From the IMG/VR virus record IMGVR_UViG_2675903352_000011, positions 1 through 8,228 of that record: a stretch of DNA of 8,228 nucleotides, one strand, 5' to 3'. The notes under the pieces were generated by a model, which saw only the letters and a list, made by a program, of their open reading frames with translations, ran no database searches and had not been told where the DNA came from. Shown piece after piece: positions 1 to 8,228 of this stretch (position 1 is the first letter of the stretch; each line of letters opens with the position of its first letter). This stretch comes from a virus (lineage: Duplodnaviria > Heunggongvirae > Uroviricota > Caudoviricetes). The position numbers and the translations under genes were made by a program.

Positions 1-154
1 TAACGAGGAAAGACCTCTGCGAGGTACGAATCCGAACCGGCCAGACGGAGGTCGCTGTCTTCACAGCTTACGAACCTGAGGAGTAAGAGACCCGGCGAGG
101 GAGAAATCCCTCGCCACCTCTGATGTGGCAGGCATCCTCAACGCACCCGCACTT

Positions 155-181
155 AACCCGCTTCGGCGGGTTTTTGTTTTT
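155..181 (+). terminator. Rho-independent terminator (GC stem, UUCG tetraloop, T-tract)
   Basis: Seen in sequence: aacccgc / ttcg / gcgggtt stem-loop at 155-172 followed by tttttgtttttatttt. Upstream 100-122 holds a second hairpin (gcgaggga gaaa tccctcgc). No ORF is listed in 1-300. Confidence 0.6.
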
Positions 182-302
182 ATTTTCAACGCGTTTGAAG
201 ATCTGGACGGTGCCGGAATAGAATCAAAAATACTTAAGTAGCGCGCAGGGATAAGAGGGATGGTCCCTTAAAGGGGAGAGCTAATTATCCGGAAGGATTC
301 TG

Positions 303-554
303 ATGATGAACATCGAAGAACTGCGTAAAATTTTTTGTGAAGATGGCCTCTATGCTGTGTGCGTTGAAAATGGAAATCTTGTTAGTCATTACCGCATTAT
401 GTGTTTGCGAAAGAATGGGGCTGCGTTAATTAATTTTGTGGATGGTCGAGTGACAGACGGATTTATCTTGCGCGAAGGTGAGTTTGTCACTTCATTACAG
501 GCACTGAAAGAGATCGGAATAAAAGCAGGCTTTTCAGCTTTTGCAGAAGAATAA
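303..554 (+). CDS. Hypothetical prophage protein, 83 aa, family not recognised
   Basis: ORF with ATG start at 303 preceded by a Shine-Dalgarno-like ggaagga about 6 nt upstream. Translation is protein-like and not low-complexity. I cannot assign a family from memory. Confidence 0.55.
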   Translation: MMNIEELRKIFCEDGLYAVCVENGNLVSHYRIMCLRKNGAALINFVDGRVTDGFILREGEFVTSLQALKEIGIKAGFSAFAEE

Positions 555-620
555 ACTCATCTACAATCTTGCGCGGGGCTGAACTCCCGCTGAGTAACAC
601 CGTGCCACCGGAGAAAACCG

Positions 621-899
621 ATGGCACGCAACGTAAAATATTACAATTCTGATAATTCGCCCGTTCTTGCCTGCACGCACGAGCGGTATTCTCACGCATT
701 CAAGTCTGAATGGTTCCAGCACCCTCCATGCACTGAAGAGCAGGCTGAATGGATAATTCAGTGTTACCGCAGGCGCGGATACGAGGTTAAGAAAGCTCTT
801 AGTCTCGACTACCGTCACTGGATAATCTCAGTCAGATTGCCTTACTCCGAACGCCCATCGCGTCCGTCCCGTACATTCCAGCAACGCATCTGGAGGTAA
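621..899 (+). CDS. Hypothetical prophage protein, 92 aa; possibly the N-terminal fragment of a disrupted longer gene
   Basis: ATG at 621 with GGAG about 8 nt upstream. Same frame as the 1053..1922 ORF; separated from it by a ~150 nt segment that is open only in the +1 frame (901..1098). May be an independent small gene or part of a frameshifted gene. Confidence 0.4.
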   Translation: MARNVKYYNSDNSPVLACTHERYSHAFKSEWFQHPPCTEEQAEWIIQCYRRRGYEVKKALSLDYRHWIISVRLPYSERPSRPSRTFQQRIWR

Positions 900-1052
900 C
901 GTGCGGGTATTACTTCGACCTGTTCTGGTACCGGAACTCGGGCTGGTGGTCGTTAAGCCGGGCCGTGAATCCATGCCGGTATTCCACAATACCCGGGTAC
1001 TGGTGGAGCCGGAACCGAAAAGCATGCGTAATCTGCCGTCCGCCAGCCGCTG

Positions 1053-1922
1053 GTGGAAGACAAAACATTGCTGCCGTTTTTCAGTAACGCACGGGTAATT
1101 CGTGCTGCTGGTGCATTGTCTGACTGGCTGTTGCGCCATATTAAATCCTGCCAGTGGCCACACGGCGATTATCATCACAGCGAAACCGTTATTCACCGTT
1201 ATGGTACCGGCGCAATGGTGTTGTGCTGGCACTGCGACAACCAGCTGCGTGACCAGACATCCGAATCACTCGAGCAACTTGCTCATCAAAACCTGTCAGC
1301 ATGGATGATTGACGTCATCGGTCACGCAATAAGCGGTACGCAGGAGCGTGAATTATCTCTGGCTGAATTATCCTGGTGGGCGGTCCGCAATCAGGTGGCG
1401 GACGCGTTACCGGAAGCGGTATTACGTCGCTCGCTGGGATTACCAGCGGAAAAAAACTGCTCGGTGTACCGCGAAAGCGACATCGTACCGGGAGAGCAGA
1501 CCGCCACCAGCATATTGAAACAGCGCACAAAAAATCTTGCACCGTTGCCTCACGCCCACCAGCAACAAAACCCATCACAGGAAAAGACGGTGGTAAGCAT
1601 CACCGTTGATCCAGAGTCTCCGGAATCTTTCATGAAGCTGCCTAAACGTCACCGTTGGGTTAAGGAGAAATACACACGCTGGGTTAAGACACAGCCGTGT
1701 GCTTGCTGCGGTATGCCAGCCGACGATCCGCATCATCTGATTGGTCACGGGCAGGGCGGAATGGGAACCAAAGCACATGATCTCTTTGTGTTGCCTTTGT
1801 GCAGAAAGCATCACGACGAGTTGCATACGGATACCGTGGCATTTGAAGAGAAGTATGGCTCCCAACTGGAGCTGATTTTTCGATTTATCGATCGCGCGCT
1901 GGCAATTGGTGTGCTGGCCTAA
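1053..1922 (+). CDS. DUF968-type prophage protein (YdfU-like) with C-terminal HNH-like Cys/His motif
   Basis: 289-aa ORF. C-terminal region [22 protein letters not shown]...[10 protein letters not shown] has paired Cys and His-His motifs typical of HNH-like zinc fingers. Position immediately upstream of Q matches nin-region genes of lambdoid prophages. The start is uncertain: the listed start is GTG, and frame-0 is open from 1032. Confidence 0.6.
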
Positions 1923-1939
1923 TTTTGTGGAGTAAGTTG

Positions 1940-2317
1940 ATGCGTGATATTCAGATGGTTCTTGAGCGTTGGGGGGCATGGGCGGCTAATAATCATGAAG
2001 ATGTGACCTGGTCGTCCATTGCCGCCGGTTTTAAGGGATTAATTCCTTCAAAAGTAAGATCTCGTCCGCAATGCTGTGACGATGACGCGATGATCATTTG
2101 TGAATGTATGGCTCGCCTGAAAAAAAACAACAGCGATTTACATGATTTATTGGTGGACTATTATGTCGGCGGCATGACTTTTATGGCGCTTGCACGTAAG
2201 CATGGGCGATCTGATTGTTGGGTTGGCAGGATGCTCCAGAAAGCTGAGGGCGTAGTGGAGGGCATGCTGATGGTGTTGGATCTCCGATTGGAGATGGATG
2301 CTGATTGTTCGAAATAA
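1940..2317 (+). CDS. quuD: Late-gene antiterminator Q (phage 82 / DLP12 QuuD-like)
   Basis: Translation [24 protein letters not shown]...[18 protein letters not shown]... matches my memory of the short Q antiterminator of DLP12-type prophages. ATG at 1940 with GGAG about 9 nt upstream (the ORF track starts at an upstream TTG at 1925). Followed by a short promoter-terminator region as expected for PR'-tR'. Confidence 0.8.
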
Positions 2318-2359
2318 TTAAAGGAAAAGTTGCTGTCTGATTTTCATTAGTCTAACATT

Positions 2360-2400
2360 TTAAATGTTGGAATCGCAACGTAGTTATTATCATATAACAG
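2360..2400 (+). promoter_or_regulatory. Candidate late promoter PR' with Q-utilisation region (approximate)
   Basis: Inference from position directly downstream of Q and upstream of a strong terminator. Weak sigma70-like elements: ttggaa at 2367-2372 and tatcat at 2388-2393 (spacing is a short 15 nt); tcatat at 2390-2395 is an alternative. Exact hexamers and TSS cannot be fixed by eye. Confidence 0.3.
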
Positions 2401-2415
2401 CTTGTTTCCTGATTT

Positions 2416-2446
2416 AGCCAGCCTCCCCAAAGGCTGGTTTTTTCTA
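2416..2446 (+). terminator. Rho-independent terminator (tR'-like)
   Basis: Seen in sequence: agccagcc / tccccaaa / ggctgg hairpin followed by ttttttc. Lies about 100 nt downstream of the Q stop. On the minus strand the hairpin is not followed by a U-tract, so it is mainly a + strand terminator. Confidence 0.65.
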
Positions 2447-2471
2447 ATAAGTATCATTTCGGGTGGGGATT

Positions 2472-2996
2472 TTATTGTTTAACCCATAATAGTTCATTGA
2501 CATTGAATCCCAACTTTTGAGCGGTACGCACATAGTCTGCTTTTACATTATCTGGAATAGTTTGGGTCCTTGCCAGAATCCATAGGTATTCTCTGTTCGG
2601 ACCACTGACAAGAGCATACTTATACTCATCATCCAGTTTGATTACATTATAGCCACCATAGAAGGGGCCAAAAAACGAAACTTTCAACGCTGCAGTTTTA
2701 GTATCTCCAGTAAAGTATGCTTTACCTTCGCTCTCGCTCCATTTGTTTTTCGTTGGATCGTATCCACGGTTAAGTACGCGAATCCCTCCGTCGTTCCGTT
2801 TTTCATAAGTAGCGCTGACCTGTTCCAGACCACGTTCGAACCAGTTCTCGAGGCGAGCTATTTCATACCATTTTCCGAGGTAGCGGTTGGCGTCAAAATT
2901 TGTAATCGGCTGCACACCTTTAGGTGGTGTCGGGGCCTTACATGCTATAAGAGTGAAAGAGAGTGCAATGCCAGTCAACACAGGCCATAACTTCAT
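2472..2996 (-). CDS. blc: Bacterial lipocalin (Blc-like) outer-membrane lipoprotein
   Basis: 174-aa translation with signal peptide and lipobox (MKLWPVLTGIALSFTLIAC, Cys followed by K at +2, not an Asp Lol-avoidance signal). Strong resemblance to E. coli Blc motifs: NFDANRYLGKWYEIARLENWFERGLEQVSATY, KAYFTGD..AALKVSFFGPFYGGYNVI, YLWILART. AGGA Shine-Dalgarno 6-8 nt upstream of the ATG on the minus strand. Opposite orientation to the late operon. Confidence 0.85.
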   Translation of the reverse strand: MKLWPVLTGIALSFTLIACKAPTPPKGVQPITNFDANRYLGKWYEIARLENWFERGLEQVSATYEKRNDGGIRVLNRGYDPTKNKWSESEGKAYFTGDTKTAALKVSFFGPFYGGYNVIKLDDEYKYALVSGPNREYLWILARTQTIPDNVKADYVRTAQKLGFNVNELLWVKQ

Positions 2997-3188
2997 AATA
3001 AATCCTGTACTTTTGATAGTTGAGAGTAAGTATGAAAGATAGATGAGTACGACCGATCACTTAAAGAACTTTCCTACTATATTAGGAATAGTCAATAACA
3101 GAAAAATTGTCAGTGATGAAGCCAGAAAGGCAATTTAGTCCGTGCACTACAAAGTTTATGTGTTAATGAATTAGTCAAGGGGGAGGAA

Positions 3189-4148
3189 ATGATAAAAAAA
3201 CCTGTGATTGGGATCAGCGGTTGTTTGGGCGGTTCTGCTGTTCGTTTTGATGGTGGTCACAAAAGAGATGACTTTTTAATGGACAAATTAGTGGAATGGG
3301 TAACATTCAGACCAGTATGTCCGGAAATGGCTATAGGGCTGCCAGTTCCGCGTCCTGCTCTACGACTTGTGCGCTCGAAGCAAGGAAATATACGGATGTG
3401 TTTCAGCCACGACCAGAATGAGGATGTGACAGAGAGAATGACAGAGTTTAGTCGTTCTTATATGGACAAATTAAAGGATGTATCGGGGTTTGTGGTTTGT
3501 GCTAAATCTCCCAGCTGTGGCATGGAGCGCGTGCGTGTCTATGATGAAAATGGTAATCGAGGTCGTAAAGATGGAGTGGGACTATTTACGAGCACTTTGA
3601 TGGAAAAGTTTTCCTGGCTACCGGTTGAAGAGGATGGGCGATTACATGATCCAGTGCTTCGTGAGAATTTTATTGAAAGAGTTTTTGCTTTGCATGAGCT
3701 CAATCACCTTTACAAGGAGAAATTATCAAGAAGAGAGTTATTAGCTTTTCATAGTCGTTATAAGCTTCAGTTGTTGGCGCATAGCCAGGCAGGCTATAAA
3801 GATATGGGACCATTTGTGGCTGCAATACACGAGTGGGCGGACCTTGAATCATACTTTGAGGTGTATCGTGATAATCTGATGGCGATTCTCAGAAAACCAG
3901 CATCACGTAAAAATCACACGAATGTGCTGATGCATATACAGGGGTATTTTAGTAATTACTTAAGTACACGCCAGCGTAAAGAGTTGAGCGAGGTTATACT
4001 TAACTATCGCTTTGGCACATTGCCTCTTCTTGCGCCGTTGACTCTGCTGAAGCATTATCTGGGTGAGTATCCTAATGATTACTTGCTTACACAGAATTAC
4101 TTCGATCCCTATCCGGAAGAACTGGCTCTAAGACTGATGGTGAATTAA
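3189..4148 (+). CDS. DUF523-DUF1722 fusion protein (TudS-like, putative [4Fe-4S] thiouracil/thiouridine desulfidase family)
   Basis: 319 aa. N-terminal PVIGISGCLGGSAVRFDGGHKRD is a DUF523-type motif. Cysteines at about positions 12, 44 and 104 fit the three-Cys ligand pattern I recall for TudS-type DUF523 proteins. The C-terminal half (AFHSRYKLQLLAHSQAGYKDMG...) resembles DUF1722. Strong RBS gggggagg about 5 nt upstream of the ATG. Confidence 0.7.
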   Translation: MIKKPVIGISGCLGGSAVRFDGGHKRDDFLMDKLVEWVTFRPVCPEMAIGLPVPRPALRLVRSKQGNIRMCFSHDQNEDVTERMTEFSRSYMDKLKDVSGFVVCAKSPSCGMERVRVYDENGNRGRKDGVGLFTSTLMEKFSWLPVEEDGRLHDPVLRENFIERVFALHELNHLYKEKLSRRELLAFHSRYKLQLLAHSQAGYKDMGPFVAAIHEWADLESYFEVYRDNLMAILRKPASRKNHTNVLMHIQGYFSNYLSTRQRKELSEVILNYRFGTLPLLAPLTLLKHYLGEYPNDYLLTQNYFDPYPEELALRLMVN

Positions 4149-4545
4149 CTGTATGCGATATCATCTGAAAGTGATGAGTTCCTGTATGCAGGATATTTAC
4201 AATCGTAAAAACTACGCTATGATGCTCATAGTGTCAGTTTTTATAAAAATCCTGTTCACGCTAAAGAAAACATTGAGATGCAATTTAATGTTGGTAAACA
4301 TACCAGCCCCAAAAGATTTTATTCAATCTGTTTTTATATGAAGATATTTCAAGTGAATATTAAGAGCATATAATATTATTATTGCACGCAGCTATTATAA
4401 TATAACAGATTAGTTTAATGATTTGTTTTTTGTGAGTTAAACACATGGTTTTATAGTTGTGATGCAATGAGATTTTCCTTATTGTTGAACTGGCGAATAT
4501 TGATTTTCCACCTATACTTACCTGGTGTAACCCCAATGATATCAG

Positions 4546-5268
4546 GTGGATAATATGCCATACATATGTTCTATCATTTTGGTGTTGAACTCGTTTGGTG
4601 TCCGAATTGGTAAAGAAGATATTTTGTTTAAAAAAGGAAATGCTGTTCTCATTGAATACAATTTAAAAGATCTTTTTTCGTCAAATACAGATCATCTAAT
4701 GATCGTAGATGTTGAGGAGAAAACAGTTAATGATTTCTTTAAAAACTACACACTCTCACCTTTTTCTGTAAGAAGGTTTTATCCGTCATACTTTATAGTA
4801 GAATGTGAAGATTTTTCATTGTTAAAGAACTTGGTTGCATGCTTGAATTGTGATAGCAAAACCGTGGATGTAGTTAGAAATCAAATATCACTTGCATGTC
4901 TTGCTGTCTTATCTTCAGAGAAAATAGTGCAAAGTTTTTTGTTCGGAAGTCTTAATAGCTTAGGTTGTAAAGTTAAGGCTATTATTCACTCGGATATCTC
5001 AGCGTCATGGAGACTTTGTGATATATCTTCAAGATTATATATGAGCGAGAGTTTGTTAAAAAGAAAATTAAAAGATGAAGGATTATCGTTTAGTAAATTA
5101 ATTCTTGAAGAACGAATGATGATGGCGCAAAGATTATTGATCTACAGTAACCATACTGTCGGCAAGGTGGCGGGAATATGCGGGTATGACAATGCATCAT
5201 ATTTTGTAAGTGTTTTTAGAGGATATTTTGGTGTGCCTCCGCACCAATATTTATCAAGATTTTCTTAG
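4546..5268 (+). CDS. AraC-family transcriptional regulator (AppY / YdeO / PatE-like prophage regulator)
   Basis: 240 aa. C-terminal AraC-type HTH signature (SESLLKRKLKDEGLSFSKLILEERMMMAQRLLIYSNHTVGKVAGICGYDNASYFVSVFRGYFGVPPHQY). N-terminus MDNMPYICSIILVLNSFG... resembles the AppY-like subgroup. Very AT-rich gene and upstream region. Start could be M1 or M4. Confidence 0.8.
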   Translation: MDNMPYICSIILVLNSFGVRIGKEDILFKKGNAVLIEYNLKDLFSSNTDHLMIVDVEEKTVNDFFKNYTLSPFSVRRFYPSYFIVECEDFSLLKNLVACLNCDSKTVDVVRNQISLACLAVLSSEKIVQSFLFGSLNSLGCKVKAIIHSDISASWRLCDISSRLYMSESLLKRKLKDEGLSFSKLILEERMMMAQRLLIYSNHTVGKVAGICGYDNASYFVSVFRGYFGVPPHQYLSRFS

Positions 5269-5336
5269 AAGATATGATGTGATGGCATTTTATAAAGTTA
5301 TTTTTTGAAGTGTAAGATTATACGATATTTTTAGCT

Positions 5337-5369
5337 ACGCCAGAATAATTGCTGGCGTTTTTCTTTTTG
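5337..5369 (+). terminator. Rho-independent terminator downstream of the AraC-family gene
   Basis: Seen in sequence: acgccag / aataattg / ctggcg hairpin followed by tttttctttttg. Confidence 0.6.
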
Positions 5370-5458
5370 AATAGATGTTCGGGCCTTACGCTAATGTAAC
5401 TTCTTTCCTTCTTCGAACCAAACCGTGTACACCATCCGTTATCTGCGGAGGTGAGGCT

Positions 5459-5674
5459 ATGAAATCCATGGATAAGTTAACAACGGGCATCGCCTACAGC
5501 ACCTCTGCAGGCAGTGCTGGCTACTGGTTTTTACAGTTGCTCGATAAAGTCACGCCCTCACAGTGGGCGGCAATAGGTGTATTGGGTAGTCTGGTATTTG
5601 GCATGCTGACGTATCTGACAAACCTTTATTTCAAGATTAAAGAAGACAGGCGTAAGGTTGCGAGAAGAGAGTAA
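5459..5674 (+). CDS. essD: Class II holin / pinholin (S21, EssD-like) with dual-start motif
   Basis: 71 aa: [71 protein letters not shown]. Near-identical to my memory of phage 21 S / DLP12 EssD. Met-Lys-Ser-Met dual start is typical of the antiholin/holin pair. Two TM segments and a charged C-terminal tail. ggaggtgagg Shine-Dalgarno directly upstream. The ORF-track extension to 5375 is rejected. Confidence 0.9.
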
Positions 5675-5678
5675 TCCA

Positions 5679-6410
5679 ATGACTCAAGACTATGAACTGG
5701 TTGTGAAAGGAGTTCGCAATTTTGAGAATAAAGTGGCGGTAACTGTAGCCTTACGGGACAAAAAACACTTTGACGGTGAAATTTTTGACCTGGACATCTC
5801 GCTGGACCGTGTTGAAGGTGCCGCGCTGGAGTTTTATGAGGCAGCAGCCAGAATGAGCGTCAGGCAGGTCCTCCTGGGAGTGGCAGAAAAATTGTCAGAA
5901 AAAGTTGAGTCTTATCTGCAGCATCAGTACTCCATTGAGATTGAAAATTCTGCCAATAAACACGATCGTCCTCATCTTGCGGGTTTTGATAGTGCAGTTA
6001 AAGCCAACACCAGGCGCGCAGGGCAGGAAAAAAACGTCGGGGATGACATAAGTCGTGCGGTGGTTACTGTAGAGTTTCCAGGGCATATGGCATCAAGAGA
6101 GAAAGTCGGGAAAGGTGGTGCTCCTGTGCTGACGAAAAGAATCGGCAGCAAGGTCAGTGTCTGGCTTGATAATGAAGAAATGTTGTCGGTTATGTACAAG
6201 GAAGACTACGACCCGAAAACAACGTTCAGCGACTATGAAGCGAGAGCAAAAAAGTATGCCTTGTTGATAGTTGCCGCGATGCGAGCCGTAAATGAGCGAC
6301 AACGCCACCACGAAAATGGGGTGGCGTTTGTTGCTAAAGCTGTTCAGCAAACTATTGATGGTATGACGACGAAGTTTCTTCAGGAATTAAAATTGTCTCA
6401 GCAAGAGTAA
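5679..6410 (+). CDS. Unknown-function protein (243 aa) inserted between holin and endolysin
   Basis: ATG at 5679, 4 nt after the holin stop, suggesting co-transcription or translational coupling with the late lysis operon. The ORF-track start at 5658 is a TTG inside the holin gene. No family recognised; no obvious TM segments; no nuclease, NTPase or HTH motif I can identify by eye. Confidence 0.6.
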   Translation: MTQDYELVVKGVRNFENKVAVTVALRDKKHFDGEIFDLDISLDRVEGAALEFYEAAARMSVRQVLLGVAEKLSEKVESYLQHQYSIEIENSANKHDRPHLAGFDSAVKANTRRAGQEKNVGDDISRAVVTVEFPGHMASREKVGKGGAPVLTKRIGSKVSVWLDNEEMLSVMYKEDYDPKTTFSDYEARAKKYALLIVAAMRAVNERQRHHENGVAFVAKAVQQTIDGMTTKFLQELKLSQQE

Positions 6411-6633
6411 CGCATGATTCGGCAATCAATTTGTTCATTTCGTCTAAAACTTCCTGCGGGGTTTCCAGGGATTCGGGTAATTTTATTGATGAAAAAGTGT
6501 TAGCTGATTTAGTAAGCAAATCTTTAATAATTGCTTTTTTCTCATCTGGTAAAGCGTTAACTAGGAGTATGACAACCTGTCTGATGGCCAGAATATCAGC
6601 AAAAGCTTTTTTAGATAAATAAGTATCGCTCAT
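6352..6633 (-). CDS. Unknown-function small protein (93 aa), convergent to and 3'-overlapping the 243-aa gene
   Basis: ATG (minus) at 6633 with AAGGA Shine-Dalgarno about 4-5 nt upstream. Translation MSDTYLSKKAFADILAIRQVVILLVNALPDEKKAIIKDLL... is helical and charged, not antisense junk. Very AT-rich. Last ~19 codons overlap the 3' end of the + strand 243-aa gene (6352-6410). Confidence 0.5.
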   Translation of the reverse strand: MSDTYLSKKAFADILAIRQVVILLVNALPDEKKAIIKDLLTKSANTFSSIKLPESLETPQEVLDEMNKLIAESCVTLAETILIPEETSSSYHQ

Positions 6634-6759
6634 ATGTTGTCCTTACTGTTTGTTCTGTGATCTTCACATTGTCAGTATTACCCCTGCGAGGAACTACCTG
6701 CCGGGCTGAGTACTAAACATATCCAGGGTTCAGGAACCGATAAATCCTGATAAATATCC

Positions 6760-7293
6760 ATGAACGTAAAAATCAAATACGGCCTGTCAGCTGCCGTTCT
6801 GGCGCTGATTGCTGCAGGCGCGTCTGCTCCTCAAATACTTGACCAGTTTCTGGATGAAAAAGAAGGTAACCACACAACGGCATACCGTGATGGTTCTGGC
6901 ATATGGACCATCTGTCGTGGTGCCACAATGGTGGATGGTAAGCCCGTCATACCGGGAATGAAGCTGTCGAAGGAAAAATGCGACCAGGTTAACGCTATTG
7001 AACGTGATAAGGCGCTGGCATGGGTGGATCGCAATATAAAAGTACCACTGACCGAACCACAAAAAGCAGGTATTGCGTCATTTTGTCCCTATAACATTGG
7101 CCCCGGTAAGTGTTTCCCGTCGACGTTTTATAAGCGGCTGAATGCCGGTGATCGTAAAGGCGCATGCGAGGCGATTCGCTGGTGGATTAAGGACGGTGGC
7201 CGTGATTGCCGCATTCGTTCAAATAACTGTTACGGTCAGGTTATTCGTCGTGACCAGGAGAGTGCGCTGGTGTGCTGGGGGATCGACAGATAA
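6760..7293 (+). CDS. rrrD: SAR endolysin (T4-lysozyme-like muramidase, RrrD / R21-like)
   Basis: 177 aa. N-terminal signal-anchor-release domain YGLSAAVLALIAAGASAP (Gly/Ala-rich, weakly hydrophobic). Catalytic E...D...T spacing matches T4 lysozyme (E-9-D-6-T in EGNHTTAYRDGSGIWT). Closely matches my memory of DLP12 RrrD. Pairing with a pinholin is the established S21/R21 arrangement. Confidence 0.9.
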   Translation: MNVKIKYGLSAAVLALIAAGASAPQILDQFLDEKEGNHTTAYRDGSGIWTICRGATMVDGKPVIPGMKLSKEKCDQVNAIERDKALAWVDRNIKVPLTEPQKAGIASFCPYNIGPGKCFPSTFYKRLNAGDRKGACEAIRWWIKDGGRDCRIRSNNCYGQVIRRDQESALVCWGIDR

Positions 7294-7383
7294 GCAGAAT
7301 ATTTTGCTGAAAAATGCCGTTTGCTCACACAAGCGGATAACACGATATTCTGCAAACTGGCAAAAGGAAGTGAATAAAAGCAA

Positions 7384-7420
7384 AAACCCCGTTTGTTGGC
7401 AGCAAGCGGGGTTTTGTTTT
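7384..7420. terminator. Bidirectional rho-independent terminator between endolysin and Rz
   Basis: Seen in sequence: (aaaa)ccccgtttg / ttggcag / caagcgggg (9-bp stem with one U-G pair) flanked by an A-tract upstream and ttttgtttt downstream, so it reads as a terminator on both strands. Confidence 0.6.
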
Positions 7421-7449
7421 CTGCCCATGGGAAAGCTAAAGGAGAAAAC

Positions 7450-7587
7450 GTGTTTGATTTTAGCAAACCGATTCTGGAGATTCGAGTGATGGCTGAAAAA
7501 TTATCCACCTGGAAGTTCATCCTTATCTGGCTGGTGTTTGTGGTTATGGGCTCCGGTTATTTCATCGGTCAGATACGCTGGTGGTGA
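7450..7587 (+). CDS. Possible small single-pass membrane peptide (45 aa from GTG 7450, or 32 aa from ATG 7489)
   Basis: In-frame GTG at 7450 preceded by ggagaaaac; alternative ATG at 7489 preceded by ggagattcgag. Encodes ...MAEKLSTWKFILIWLVFVVMGSGYFIGQIRWW with one clear hydrophobic helix. Stop TGA at 7585-7587 abuts the Rz ATG at 7589. Could instead be a non-coding remnant. Confidence 0.3.
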   Translation: MFDFSKPILEIRVMAEKLSTWKFILIWLVFVVMGSGYFIGQIRWW

Positions 7588-7588
7588 A

Positions 7589-8053
7589 ATGAACCGGATT
7601 CTGTATGGCGTGATTATTGTCCTGCTGATGGTCTGTAGTGCTCTGTGGCTGGCAACAGATCATTACCGCGATAACGCCATTACCTACAAAACACAACGCG
7701 ATGACAATGCCAGAGAGCTGAAACTGGCAGAGGCGATCATTACTGATATGCAGGTGCGCCAGCGTGACGTTGCTGCACTCGATGCAAAATATTCAAAGGA
7801 ATTAGCTGATGCGAAAGCTGAAAATGATGCTCTGCGTGATGATATTGCCGCTGGTCGTCGTCGGTTGCGCATCAGAGCAGTCTGTCCAGCCGTGCGTGAA
7901 GCCACCGCCTCCTCCGGCGTGGATGATGCAACCAGCCCCCGACTGGCAGACACCGCTGAACGGGATTATTTCACCCTCAGAGACCGATTGATGACGATGC
8001 AGAAGCAACTGGAAGGGGCACAGCTATACATTCGTGAGCAATGCCTCAGATAA
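7589..8053 (+). CDS. rzpD: Spanin inner-membrane subunit Rz (i-spanin, RzpD-like)
   Basis: 154 aa from ATG 7589: MNRILYGVIIVLLMVCSALWLATDHYRDNAITYKTQRDDNARELKLAEAIITDMQ... N-terminal TM anchor plus coiled-coil periplasmic domain, strong resemblance to lambda/DLP12 Rz. The ORF-track start at 7538 is rejected because it lacks an RBS and overlaps the upstream peptide ORF. Confidence 0.85.
   Translation: MNRILYGVIIVLLMVCSALWLATDHYRDNAITYKTQRDDNARELKLAEAIITDMQVRQRDVAALDAKYSKELADAKAENDALRDDIAAGRRRLRIRAVCPAVREATASSGVDDATSPRLADTAERDYFTLRDRLMTMQKQLEGAQLYIREQCLR
7809..7991 (+). CDS. rzoD: Spanin outer-membrane lipoprotein subunit Rz1 (o-spanin, RzoD-like), embedded in the +1 frame of Rz
   Basis: 60 aa: MRKLKMMLCVMILPLVVVGCASEQSVQPCVKPPPPPAWMMQPAPDWQTPLNGIISPSETD. 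Lipobox LVVVGC and a proline-rich segment. Lies entirely within the Rz coding region in a different frame, the classic Rz/Rz1 arrangement. Confidence 0.85.
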   Translation: MRKLKMMLCVMILPLVVVGCASEQSVQPCVKPPPPPAWMMQPAPDWQTPLNGIISPSETD

Positions 8054-8228
8054 AAACCGGCCAAGGATAATCCGCTGAAGATTTGCCGGCGGCGAAAGAG
8101 AGCCAAGGGTTCAGCCTACGCCATTACTCCTGTCGATGCAATGCATTGTATGGGGCCACCACATATTGCAATTTTTGTGCTCTCTTAAAATATATTCCAC
8201 GGGTGTCATTAGCGCGAGCGCCTTATGG

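Follow-up and report, generated by a model that had tools for sequence, protein, structure and literature searches.

A portable cassette of a terminator and a small membrane-peptide gene between the endolysin and Rz genes of lambdoid prophages

A terminator and a small gene in the R-Rz spacer

The stretch of DNA analysed here, positions 1 to 8,228 of the IMG/VR virus record IMGVR_UViG_2675903352_000011 (8,228 nt in all, hereafter the window), is the late-gene region of a lambdoid prophage. In it the endolysin gene R, whose stop codon occupies 7291-7293, is separated from the i-spanin gene Rz, whose ATG begins at 7589, by a spacer of 295 nt (7294-7588), as a preliminary description made from the sequence alone had recorded. 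Comparison with related loci indicates that this spacer is a mosaic of two parts, the 3' flank of R (7294-7373) and a discrete cassette (7374-7587), which by its recurrence in other phages is exchanged between them and which consists of an intrinsic terminator, a short leader that carries a strong Shine-Dalgarno (SD) sequence and a gene of 45 codons. On balance we favour the interpretation that the gene encodes a late-expressed peptide, which would be silenced by the terminator in the lysogen, switched on by Q-dependent read-through and coupled to Rz. The parts of the spacer are as follows.

7294-7373, plus strand: 3' flank of R, which holds a first hairpin and a 9-bp inverted repeat in the lineage of the window only
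7374-7424: intrinsic terminator, with A-tract 7374-7386, stem-loop 7383-7415 (GC core 7387-7411) and T-tract 7412-7422
7425-7449, plus strand: leader, with the SD sequence AAGGAG at 7439-7444, 5 nt before the GTG start
7450-7587, plus strand: small gene, 45 amino acids (aa), VFDFSKPILEIRVMAEKLSTWKFILIWLVFVVMGSGYFIGQIRWW, with GTG at 7450 and TGA at 7585-7587; PHROG 6632
7457-7465, minus strand: putative extended -10 promoter TGCTAAAAT, inside codons 3-6 of the small gene
7374-7452, minus strand: predicted cis-antisense RNA of about 75-80 nt, folded as a hairpin with a UUUUUGCUUUUAUU tail

The terminator

The U-tract that follows the stem 7383-7415 reads TTTTGTTTTCT, and the window stem folds with -20.0 kcal/mol on the plus strand against -13.6 kcal/mol on the minus strand. 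When 6600-8228 was scanned for terminator-like sites, 7383-7415 was the sole site reported and was called on the plus strand only; this is one site found against 1.6 expected by chance, and it is the comparative data that decide. In an alignment of 31 variants 94% of the cells are paired, with both sides changed at 6 of the 13 pairs (30 cells), and none of 500 shuffles reached the observed values. The hairpin stands upstream of the small open reading frame (ORF) in nearly every context, the most divergent members included, and does so with many different stem sequences. The succession of A-tract, GC-rich hairpin and T-tract lies 25-35 nt before the SD sequence in nearly every locus, and, whichever gene comes before it, the A-rich tract 5' of the hairpin is retained in every context. 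Judged by its structure and covariation, the hairpin 7383-7415 is a genuine intrinsic terminator, which upholds the earlier interpretation of this second, stronger hairpin with its A- and T-tracts. The earlier label ‘bidirectional’ holds only in part, as the upstream A-tract is conserved, but the minus-strand fold is weaker and the scan called the plus strand alone.

By the company it keeps across loci, the terminator is a part of the small-gene cassette and not of R or Rz. The preliminary description had suggested that it insulates Rz/Rz1. Because the terminator and the small gene occur together in baseplate and tail operons that lack Rz, into which they travel as one, the terminator probably does not exist for that purpose, and more likely gates the small gene itself.

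The small gene

The small gene ends with its TGA 1 nt before the Rz ATG. Its peptide matches phrog_6632 along the entire profile (E = 5.1e-27, residues 1-45 on 45/45 profile positions), while searches of Pfam and NCBIfam gave no matches. No family of the lysis category was matched in PHROG, Pfam or NCBIfam, the only match being to a PHROG without assigned function. The copy in E. coli is annotated by the Prokaryotic Genome Annotation Pipeline (PGAP) as a 45-aa hypothetical protein, WP_000459345.1, and the copy in H-19B is left unannotated. A literature search on the accession WP_000459345 gave no match, and no Ribo-seq or proteomic record was found.

Altogether 227 loci carrying the small gene were gathered from isolate genomes, IMG/VR and metagenomes, comprising 31 distinct proteins and 48 distinct DNA sequences. 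Between divergent pairs the ratio of nonsynonymous to synonymous substitution rates (dN/dS) is 0.07-0.19 in the gene's own frame and above 1 in the other two. The start codon is GTG or TTG throughout the 227 loci, with a three-locus ATG variant as the sole exception, and an SD-like GGAG/GAGG stands in front of the gene in all variants. The closest relatives of the peptide are from Escherichia albertii (96%), and when 1.84 billion representative proteins were searched with a profile of the family, only 37 clusters matched. In distant members the pattern x-S-K-h-I-+-E-h-R-h-M-x-E-+-L-x-x-W-+-F is retained ahead of a transmembrane (TM) segment that often ends in RWW or KWW, and the N-terminal helix preserves its amino-acid pattern even where identity falls to about 30-40%. 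AlphaFold places helices at residues 5-17 and 20-44 (pLDDT, the predicted local distance difference test, 81.5), corresponding to an amphipathic N-terminal helix and a C-terminal TM helix.

These comparisons show the small ORF to be a real gene, conserved and encoding a peptide with one TM helix. What had been described as a short ORF with one hydrophobic helix ending 1 nt before Rz is thus established as a gene by its PHROG 6632 match, its dN/dS values and the two-helix model. The product is predicted to be a tail-anchored inner-membrane protein, which would have its amphipathic helix in the cytoplasm, a single TM helix and RWW at the C-terminus. A deleted gene, it had been suggested, could have left the spacer as its scar, but this fails because purifying selection acts on the segment, which is a discrete cassette.

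The likely start of the gene is GTG 7450. A 64-aa form from TTG 7393 was rejected as the main product, that codon being inside the terminator stem. A 32-aa form from ATG 7489 was likewise rejected as the main product, and the 45-aa form preferred, because the N-terminal 13 residues, and with them the N-terminal helix, are conserved as protein in distant members. Met14 (ATG codon 14, 7489-7491 in the window) is nonetheless invariant in the 42 full-length sequences, and an internal GGAG (7476-7479 in the window) lies 9 nt before this codon in all full-length family members examined. The gene may give two products, of 45 and 32 aa, loosely like dual-start holins. A hairpin between leader GCUAAA and UUUAGC of codons 4-5, which would occlude the SD sequence, is found in the window and not in relatives, and was dropped.

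Distribution and genomic contexts of the cassette

Homology across contexts starts at the A-tract and stops at the stop codon of the small gene. A 501-nt spacer query found matches in 870 of 5426 complete E. coli genomes (about 16%), with 84-90% identity over at least 80% of the query length, and also matched H-19B, CP-1639 and many Stx1a- and Stx2c-converting phages. The cassette-free state is seen in the K-12 Qin genes rrrQ/rzpQ and in rrrD/Rz of prophage PP2 of enteropathogenic E. coli (EPEC), where the R/Rz-type genes overlap by 4 nt. The relatives from E. albertii lie, in the same arrangement, in prophages that seem complete, with an antiterminator gene on the upstream side and the genes for terminase, portal and capsid downstream; by this layout the terminator lies inside an otherwise intact late operon. 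The contexts are listed below by upstream gene, downstream gene, gap between the small gene and the next gene, and loci.

Phage-lysozyme endolysin upstream, PF03245/phrog_13 Rz downstream: gap 1 nt; 82 loci
Phage-lysozyme endolysin upstream, three further small ORFs and then PF03245/phrog_13 Rz downstream: gap 352 nt; 55 loci
GH19 endolysin upstream, DUF2514 Rz downstream (E. fergusonii): gap 1 nt; 4 loci
GH19 endolysin upstream, phrog_1026 spanin downstream: gap 22 nt or 4-nt overlap; 5 loci and L269
phrog_873 endolysin upstream, phrog_214 spanin downstream: gap 1 nt; L118
A further, divergent Rz family downstream: gap 1 nt; L275 and L287
Baseplate spike-like gene upstream, phrog_120 wedge or phrog_7986 gene downstream: gap 3-15 nt; 47 loci, including Yersinia similis
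Various genes upstream, J-like, tape-measure-like and other structural genes downstream: gap variable; single cases

Across these loci the cassette sits between three unrelated endolysin families and five unrelated i-spanin families, usually with 1 nt from its stop codon to the spanin ATG. The small gene is always co-directional with the late operon and packed tightly against the next gene. The cassette is not tied to Rz, because it is also present in baseplate and tail operons. Although the small ORF has already been catalogued as a hypothetical protein and a PHROG, no earlier description could be found of the cassette's architecture, of its mobility or of its link with spanin genes.

Several unrelated families of small TM proteins occur at the endolysin-spanin junction (PHROGs 6632, 4906, 1115/4493/3246 and 12997), and the other small-ORF families in the R-Rz slot are likewise all without assigned function. 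Prophage Sp4 of strain Sakai (L231 6600-6870, minus strand) carries an identical terminator and a related leader before an unrelated small ORF of PHROG 4493, which ends IRWW-TGA-T-ATG(Rz), and PhiR12_2 carries a nearly identical terminator and a related leader before an unrelated small ORF of PHROG 1115. In Sakai Sp15 (L095 4749-4895, minus strand) ant is found together with ECs_5741, a 48-aa TM ORF directly before Rz.

Tandem arrangements were also observed. In phage vB_EcoS-783R2 (L094 1655-2141) four small single-TM ORFs lie in tandem between R and Rz, and in PhiR12_2 (L093 1657-1985) there are two. Such R-Rz arrays hold PHROGs 6632, 4906 and 1115/3246-like, together with a 28-aa ORF that ends IRWW 1 nt before Rz. 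An E. fergusonii locus (L005 3689-3908) has a second small TM ORF upstream of the cassette, of PHROG 12997 and with its own terminator, which ends KWW and then TGATATG; the string TGGTGGTGATATG is found on both sides of the cassette in this locus and hints at an insertion route. The R-Rz gap, these cases suggest, is a hotspot for small single-TM genes.

The 3' flank of R and the first hairpin

The left part of the spacer behaves differently from the cassette. The spacer is matched by 323 phage records, most of which share just the first 90 nt or so after the R stop codon, and the sequence of this R 3' flank is conserved in more than 300 records regardless of what comes next. Phages of the 933W/Sakai-Sp15 type, for example, share the flank and have another terminator, an antirepressor gene and another small ORF after it.

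In the window the flank contains the inverted repeat GCAGAATAT/ATATTCTGC at 7294-7302 and 7345-7353, which is 100% complementary and encloses a hairpin formed by CCGTTTG (7317-7323) and CAAGCGG (7330-7336). The 9-bp repeat of the preliminary description is therefore present and does enclose a hairpin, but its true position is one base to the left of that first given. The RNA 7291-7360 folds with -19.8 kcal/mol (z = -4.3 against shuffles) and the RNA 7291-7425 with -45 kcal/mol (z = -4.0). A recurrence of the stem motif in the second hairpin had been reported as well, and it is indeed there, with CAAGCGG at 7330 and 7403 and AAAAAYSCCGTTTG at 7310 and 7382. The first hairpin (7310-7336) and the terminator (7382-7409) share the stem sequence CCGTTTG/CAAGCGG in the window lineage only, which may reflect a local duplication or gene conversion.

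Relatives do not retain this fold. The segment 7294-7354, compared in 28 distinct versions, has a variable centre between flanks of conserved sequence. In 25 of these 28 sequences two of the ten outer pairs of the first hairpin are unpaired; the inner helix is 69% paired, and a compensatory double change is seen in one cell only. The RNAalifold consensus for the segment is a different, weak fold of -5.1 kcal/mol, and the E. coli homologue (z = -1.0) is no better than shuffled sequence. A structure kept with covariation in 7294-7354 was thus looked for in 28 relatives and not found, and the idea that the first hairpin and 9-bp repeat form a structured RNA element did not survive the folding and covariation analysis. 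Because pairing breaks in relatives without compensation, the first hairpin is not a conserved element; its strong fold appears peculiar to the lineage of the window, and nothing in the comparison supports a function.

The CACACAA loop of the first hairpin had prompted the consideration of an anti-small RNA (anti-sRNA) of the AgvB/AsxR type, a mimic of GcvB. This was rejected because the moron slot, downstream of pR'/stx, is where AsxR and its related sRNAs map (PMC4104026), and because Rfam gave no match.

An opposite-strand promoter motif and a candidate antisense RNA

On the minus strand, the sequence TGCTAAAAT is the only match to an extended -10 promoter in the window. The motif TGnTAnnnT is present at codons 3-6 in 22 of 27 distinct 5' ends of the family, compared with 1.5% of 938 control ORF starts from the same loci. 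Drift in the -10 hexamer is confined to its third and fourth positions (TAAAAT, TAATAT, TAAGAT, TATGAT, TAGAAT). The amino acid of codon 4 varies (F/I/L/H/S), but its last letter is T in every case, corresponding to the -11 A of the motif. Among 42 distinct sequences, synonymous change in codons 3-7 (GAT TTT AGC AAA CTG) is near zero, with one synonymous codon for each. Diversity at third positions rises from 0.15 for codons 2-21 to 0.54 for codons 22-44 (Mann-Whitney p = 1.5e-5), and synonymous diversity is about 0.5 over codons 22-43. Because the adjoining leader just 5' of the gene is itself variable (nucleotide diversity, pi, 0.50), the frozen codons are an island of constraint and not a recent recombination tract. 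The small ORFs of Sakai Sp4 and PhiR12_2 have an opposite-strand TATACT in the same place, with a -35 of TGGACA or TAGTCA at 18 nt; the promoter-like site at the 5' end of the Sakai Sp4 ORF (PHROG 4493) is TGGACA-18 nt-TATACT.

An antisense RNA from the TGCTAAAAT promoter is put forward here, tentatively, as a second layer of control. Such an RNA would start about 7 nt 3' of the -10 element, at the complement of the GTG start codon, would cover the start codon, the SD sequence and the leader, and would end at the U-tail of the terminator hairpin. The left boundary of the cassette coincides with the A-tract, and an RNA ending there would explain why the A-tract is kept wherever the cassette goes.

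Published data were searched for such a transcript and none was found. In enterohaemorrhagic E. coli (EHEC) Sakai no peaks from Hfq cross-linking with cDNA analysis (Hfq-CRAC) are listed at the R-Rz gaps of Sp4 or Sp15 (Tree 2014, Table S2), a result that is uninformative for the 45-aa gene because Sp4 and Sp15 carry other small ORFs. The strains used for the published Hfq-CRAC and RIL-seq (RNA interaction by ligation and sequencing) data lack the 45-aa gene at the loci inspected. PasA, PasB and PasC are Hfq-dependent sRNAs of roughly 80 nt in EPEC prophage regions; PasB is 83 nt long and runs antisense in the interval from tail gene I to tail gene J (PMC8550237, Table S6). PasB was considered as a candidate for the predicted antisense RNA and rejected, as its locus (tail genes I/J) and its sequence are different; the EPEC E2348/69 prophages PP2 and PP5 are without the cassette.

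Proposed mechanism and alternative explanations

Q-modified polymerase ignores intrinsic terminators, and for this reason a terminator within an intact late operon can act only on unmodified polymerase. In a lysogen the terminator would halt unmodified polymerase coming from upstream moron promoters or from pR' leak, so that no peptide is made. After induction, Q-modified polymerase would read through the terminator and the peptide would be translated. This dependence on a terminator-resistant, Q-modified polymerase, already proposed in the preliminary description, fits the layout, with a Q-type gene upstream and terminase, portal and capsid genes downstream. Ribosomes ending at TGA 7585-7587 would restart at the Rz ATG, which the layout places 1 nt downstream, and the junction between the small gene and Rz would replace the 4-nt R/Rz overlap of cassette-free phages. 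As for the peptide itself, an accessory role in the last steps of lysis, whether in timing or in a spanin or membrane function, is suggested with some reserve; it is favoured because the cassette stands directly upstream of five unrelated i-spanin families.

Several observations weigh against this interpretation. The terminator lies downstream of S and R and cannot protect the lysogen from either gene, so the value of a ‘gate’ rests on the peptide being harmful in its own right, which is putative. The cassette is found in tail or baseplate operons at about a fifth of the loci, weakening the link to lysis, and the context counts are biased in that the loci were sampled by similarity to E. coli queries. 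As regards the antisense RNA, a sigma-70 promoter scan of both strands of 6600-8228 gave no sites at threshold and the -35 of the putative promoter is poor (3/6). Of 39 variants, 34 have a terminator that folds more stably on the plus strand (mean -18.4 kcal/mol, compared with -15.7 kcal/mol on the minus strand), and the minus-strand hairpin of the window has an A-C mismatch. Finally, it could instead be translation initiation, at the weak GTG/TTG or at the internal GGAG-9 nt-ATG14, that keeps the synonymous sites frozen.

In an alternative that we consider unlikely, the cassette is a type I toxin-antitoxin-like module, a toxic membrane peptide with a cis-antisense RNA, that serves prophage maintenance or abortive infection and for which the Rz site is a permissive slot. 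The peptide is small and hydrophobic (45 aa, predicted helix 20-44) and has a weak start codon, the opposite-strand extended -10 is conserved just inside the ORF where synonymous sites are frozen, the terminator has U-tracts on both strands in all contexts, and the cassette occurs outside lysis contexts. The closest known layout is that of symE/symR, in which the antisense promoter lies inside the 5' end of the ORF. Searches of Rfam with the whole window and with 7250-7620 (E up to 10) returned only sub-threshold, terminator-driven matches (OhsC, IS102 and others), of which OhsC, the antitoxin RNA of ShoB, would fit such a module (22.8 bits, E = 0.31); this match is, however, essentially the terminator stem and compares with a gathering score of 50, and neither Rfam, Pfam nor NCBIfam gave a toxin or antitoxin family. 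No sense promoter was found between the terminator and the ORF or upstream in the scan of 6600-8228, and without one the ‘toxin’ could be transcribed only by read-through of the late transcript, unlike known type I systems. The constant late-operon orientation and the tight packing also fit a late-operon passenger better than an autonomous module. The lack of a promoter before the ORF and the terminator directly upstream are, moreover, the opposite of what expression in the prophage state needs, and they make it highly improbable that the gene is a moron expressed in the lysogen, even though it does encode a small inner-membrane protein inserted between late genes, tail genes included. The model for such a moron would be HK97 gp15, a membrane protein of superinfection exclusion.

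Two further explanations shift the function away from the peptide. That the functional unit is RNA, either a structured 3' untranslated region (UTR) of R or a 3'-UTR-derived sRNA spanning 7294-7420 with the first hairpin, is very unlikely. The conservation, in more than 300 phage records, of the 90 nt or so that follow the R stop, even before other terminators and genes, the unusually stable folds of the window (z = -4.3, and z = -4.0 for 7291-7425) and the different terminator that Sakai Sp15/933W-type phages carry about 110 nt after R would all agree with it; yet the structure is lost in relatives without covariation, the E. coli homologue folds no better than shuffles, no Rfam family matches, no Hfq-CRAC peak is listed at the corresponding places of Sakai Sp4/Sp15, and conservation of the flank is equally well explained as a recombination joint of the R module. 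There is also little to commend the view that the terminator insulates Rz/Rz1 and the downstream late genes, with the small ORF serving only as a leader that delivers ribosomes to Rz. The 1-nt spacing from stop to ATG is kept across three different spanin families and the terminator precedes Rz at the majority of loci, as this would require, but terminator and ORF occur together in operons without Rz, purifying selection acts on the peptide sequence and not merely on the reading frame, and no leader is needed for Rz because cassette-free phages couple R and Rz directly. Neutral filler or a deletion scar with a spurious ORF is hardly credible. The ORF is short and is unannotated in H-19B and many phage records, but its dN/dS is well below 1 in one frame only, the terminator covaries, and the cassette recurs with sharp boundaries in many unrelated contexts.

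Significance

Lysis of Gram-negative hosts is usually described in terms of holin, endolysin and spanin. A peptide gene that recurs before five i-spanin families, together with arrays of up to four small TM genes, points to accessory players that have gone unstudied. The cassette is carried by very common prophages, Stx1/H-19B-type phages among them, and is present in about 16% of the complete genomes of E. coli. With a terminator upstream, a weak start codon and, within synonymous sites, a probable antisense promoter, the arrangement would be a compact way to silence a potentially harmful late gene in the lysogen. Should the peptide have no phenotype, the finding shrinks to another conserved phage ORF without assigned function. 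A bolder proposal, which we regard as speculative and rather unlikely, is that the cassette stands for a class of phage element not described before, in which a membrane-active peptide is encoded by a portable late gene that is gated by a terminator and controlled by an antisense RNA, combining a type I-toxin-like layout with dependence on Q-type antitermination, and that the small-TM families form an exchangeable layer of lysis or spanin regulation.

Neighbouring genes

The other features of the window are listed here in order.

1053-1922: NinG-like gene
1925-2317: Q antiterminator
2472-5268: moron block of lipocalin-like (minus strand), DUF1722 and AraC-type genes
About 5459-5674: phage-21-type holin
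5658-6410, plus strand: DUF1327 gene
6352-6633, minus strand: ORF of 93 aa, PHROG 2572
6760-7293, plus strand: endolysin R, which borders the spacer on the left; phage-21/T4-lysozyme type, N-terminus hydrophobic (PF00959, 1.2e-24; phrog_7 endolysin, 1.2e-63)
7294-7588: spacer
7589-8053, plus strand: Rz, i-spanin (PF03245, 1.9e-49; phrog_13, 1.3e-70)
7809-7991: Rz1, o-spanin lipoprotein embedded in Rz, with a VVGC lipobox

The moron block between Q and the holin comprises genes for a lipocalin-like protein, a DUF1722/2-thiouracil-desulfurase-like protein and an AraC-type regulator, of which the DUF1722 and AraC-type genes are also found in an E. coli relative (L009). The DUF1327 (YdfR-like) gene encodes 250 aa in the window compared with 103-114 aa in relatives; its N-terminal domain carries an additional extension of about 150 aa that matches other PHROGs. 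The minus-strand ORF 6352-6633, whose PHROG is without assigned function, is antisense to the late operon between the DUF1327 gene and R, and relatives have a minus-strand ORF of 90 aa at this position. Two further sub-threshold Rfam matches were seen on the plus strand, isrK at 95-176 (25.7 bits) and ‘Betaproteobacteria toxic sRNA’ at 2403-2446 (27 bits), the latter just 3' of Q, where a short transcript of the pR'/tR' type would be expected.

Comparison with known systems

The cassette belongs with morons or with accessory lysis genes. It has in common with phage morons, among them lambda bor/lom and HK97 gp15, that it is inserted as a discrete unit between genes which adjoin or overlap in relatives, that it has its own terminator, that it occupies several slots of the late operon and that it is exchanged horizontally. 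Classical morons, however, have their own promoter and a downstream terminator and are expressed in the prophage, whereas the terminator of the cassette is upstream, no moron-style promoter of its own was found in the scan of 6600-8228, the terminator tail and the SD sequence being just some 25 nt apart, and its gene is packed for translational coupling with the next late gene.

Accessory lysis proteins, among which are lambda S107, the S21-71 antiholins, P2 LysA, P1 LydB/C/D, T4 RI/RIII and the Mu gp25 releasin, are likewise small membrane proteins of the holin-endolysin-spanin cassette, and the possible dual start of the small gene (GTG/TTG and GGAG-9 nt-ATG14) is a further point of resemblance. 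The peptide described here differs in having no sequence relationship to them and a single C-terminal TM helix, and its gene lies between endolysin and spanin and not beside the holin, as well as outside lysis cassettes.

With type I systems (symE/symR, hok/sok, zorO/orzO, shoB/ohsC) the cassette shares a small hydrophobic peptide and a predicted antisense RNA, about 75 nt long, whose promoter would lie within the 5' end of the ORF and which would extend over the SD sequence and start codon. Unlike in those systems, the antisense RNA is a prediction only, a toxin promoter, a long folded 5' UTR and a family match are all missing, and the gene is co-directional within a phage late operon. The Pas sRNAs are comparable as prophage RNAs of roughly 80 nt that end at a terminator and depend on Hfq, with PasB antisense between late genes (PMC8550237), but their sequences and loci are different and the PasB locus has no homologue of the peptide gene.

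The arrangement as a whole resembles the R/Rz coupling and Q antitermination of the lambda type, with tight stop/start spacing into Rz and a Q gene upstream (1925-2317). It departs from that plan in that the partner of Rz is the small gene instead of R, and in that the late operon carries an extra internal terminator.

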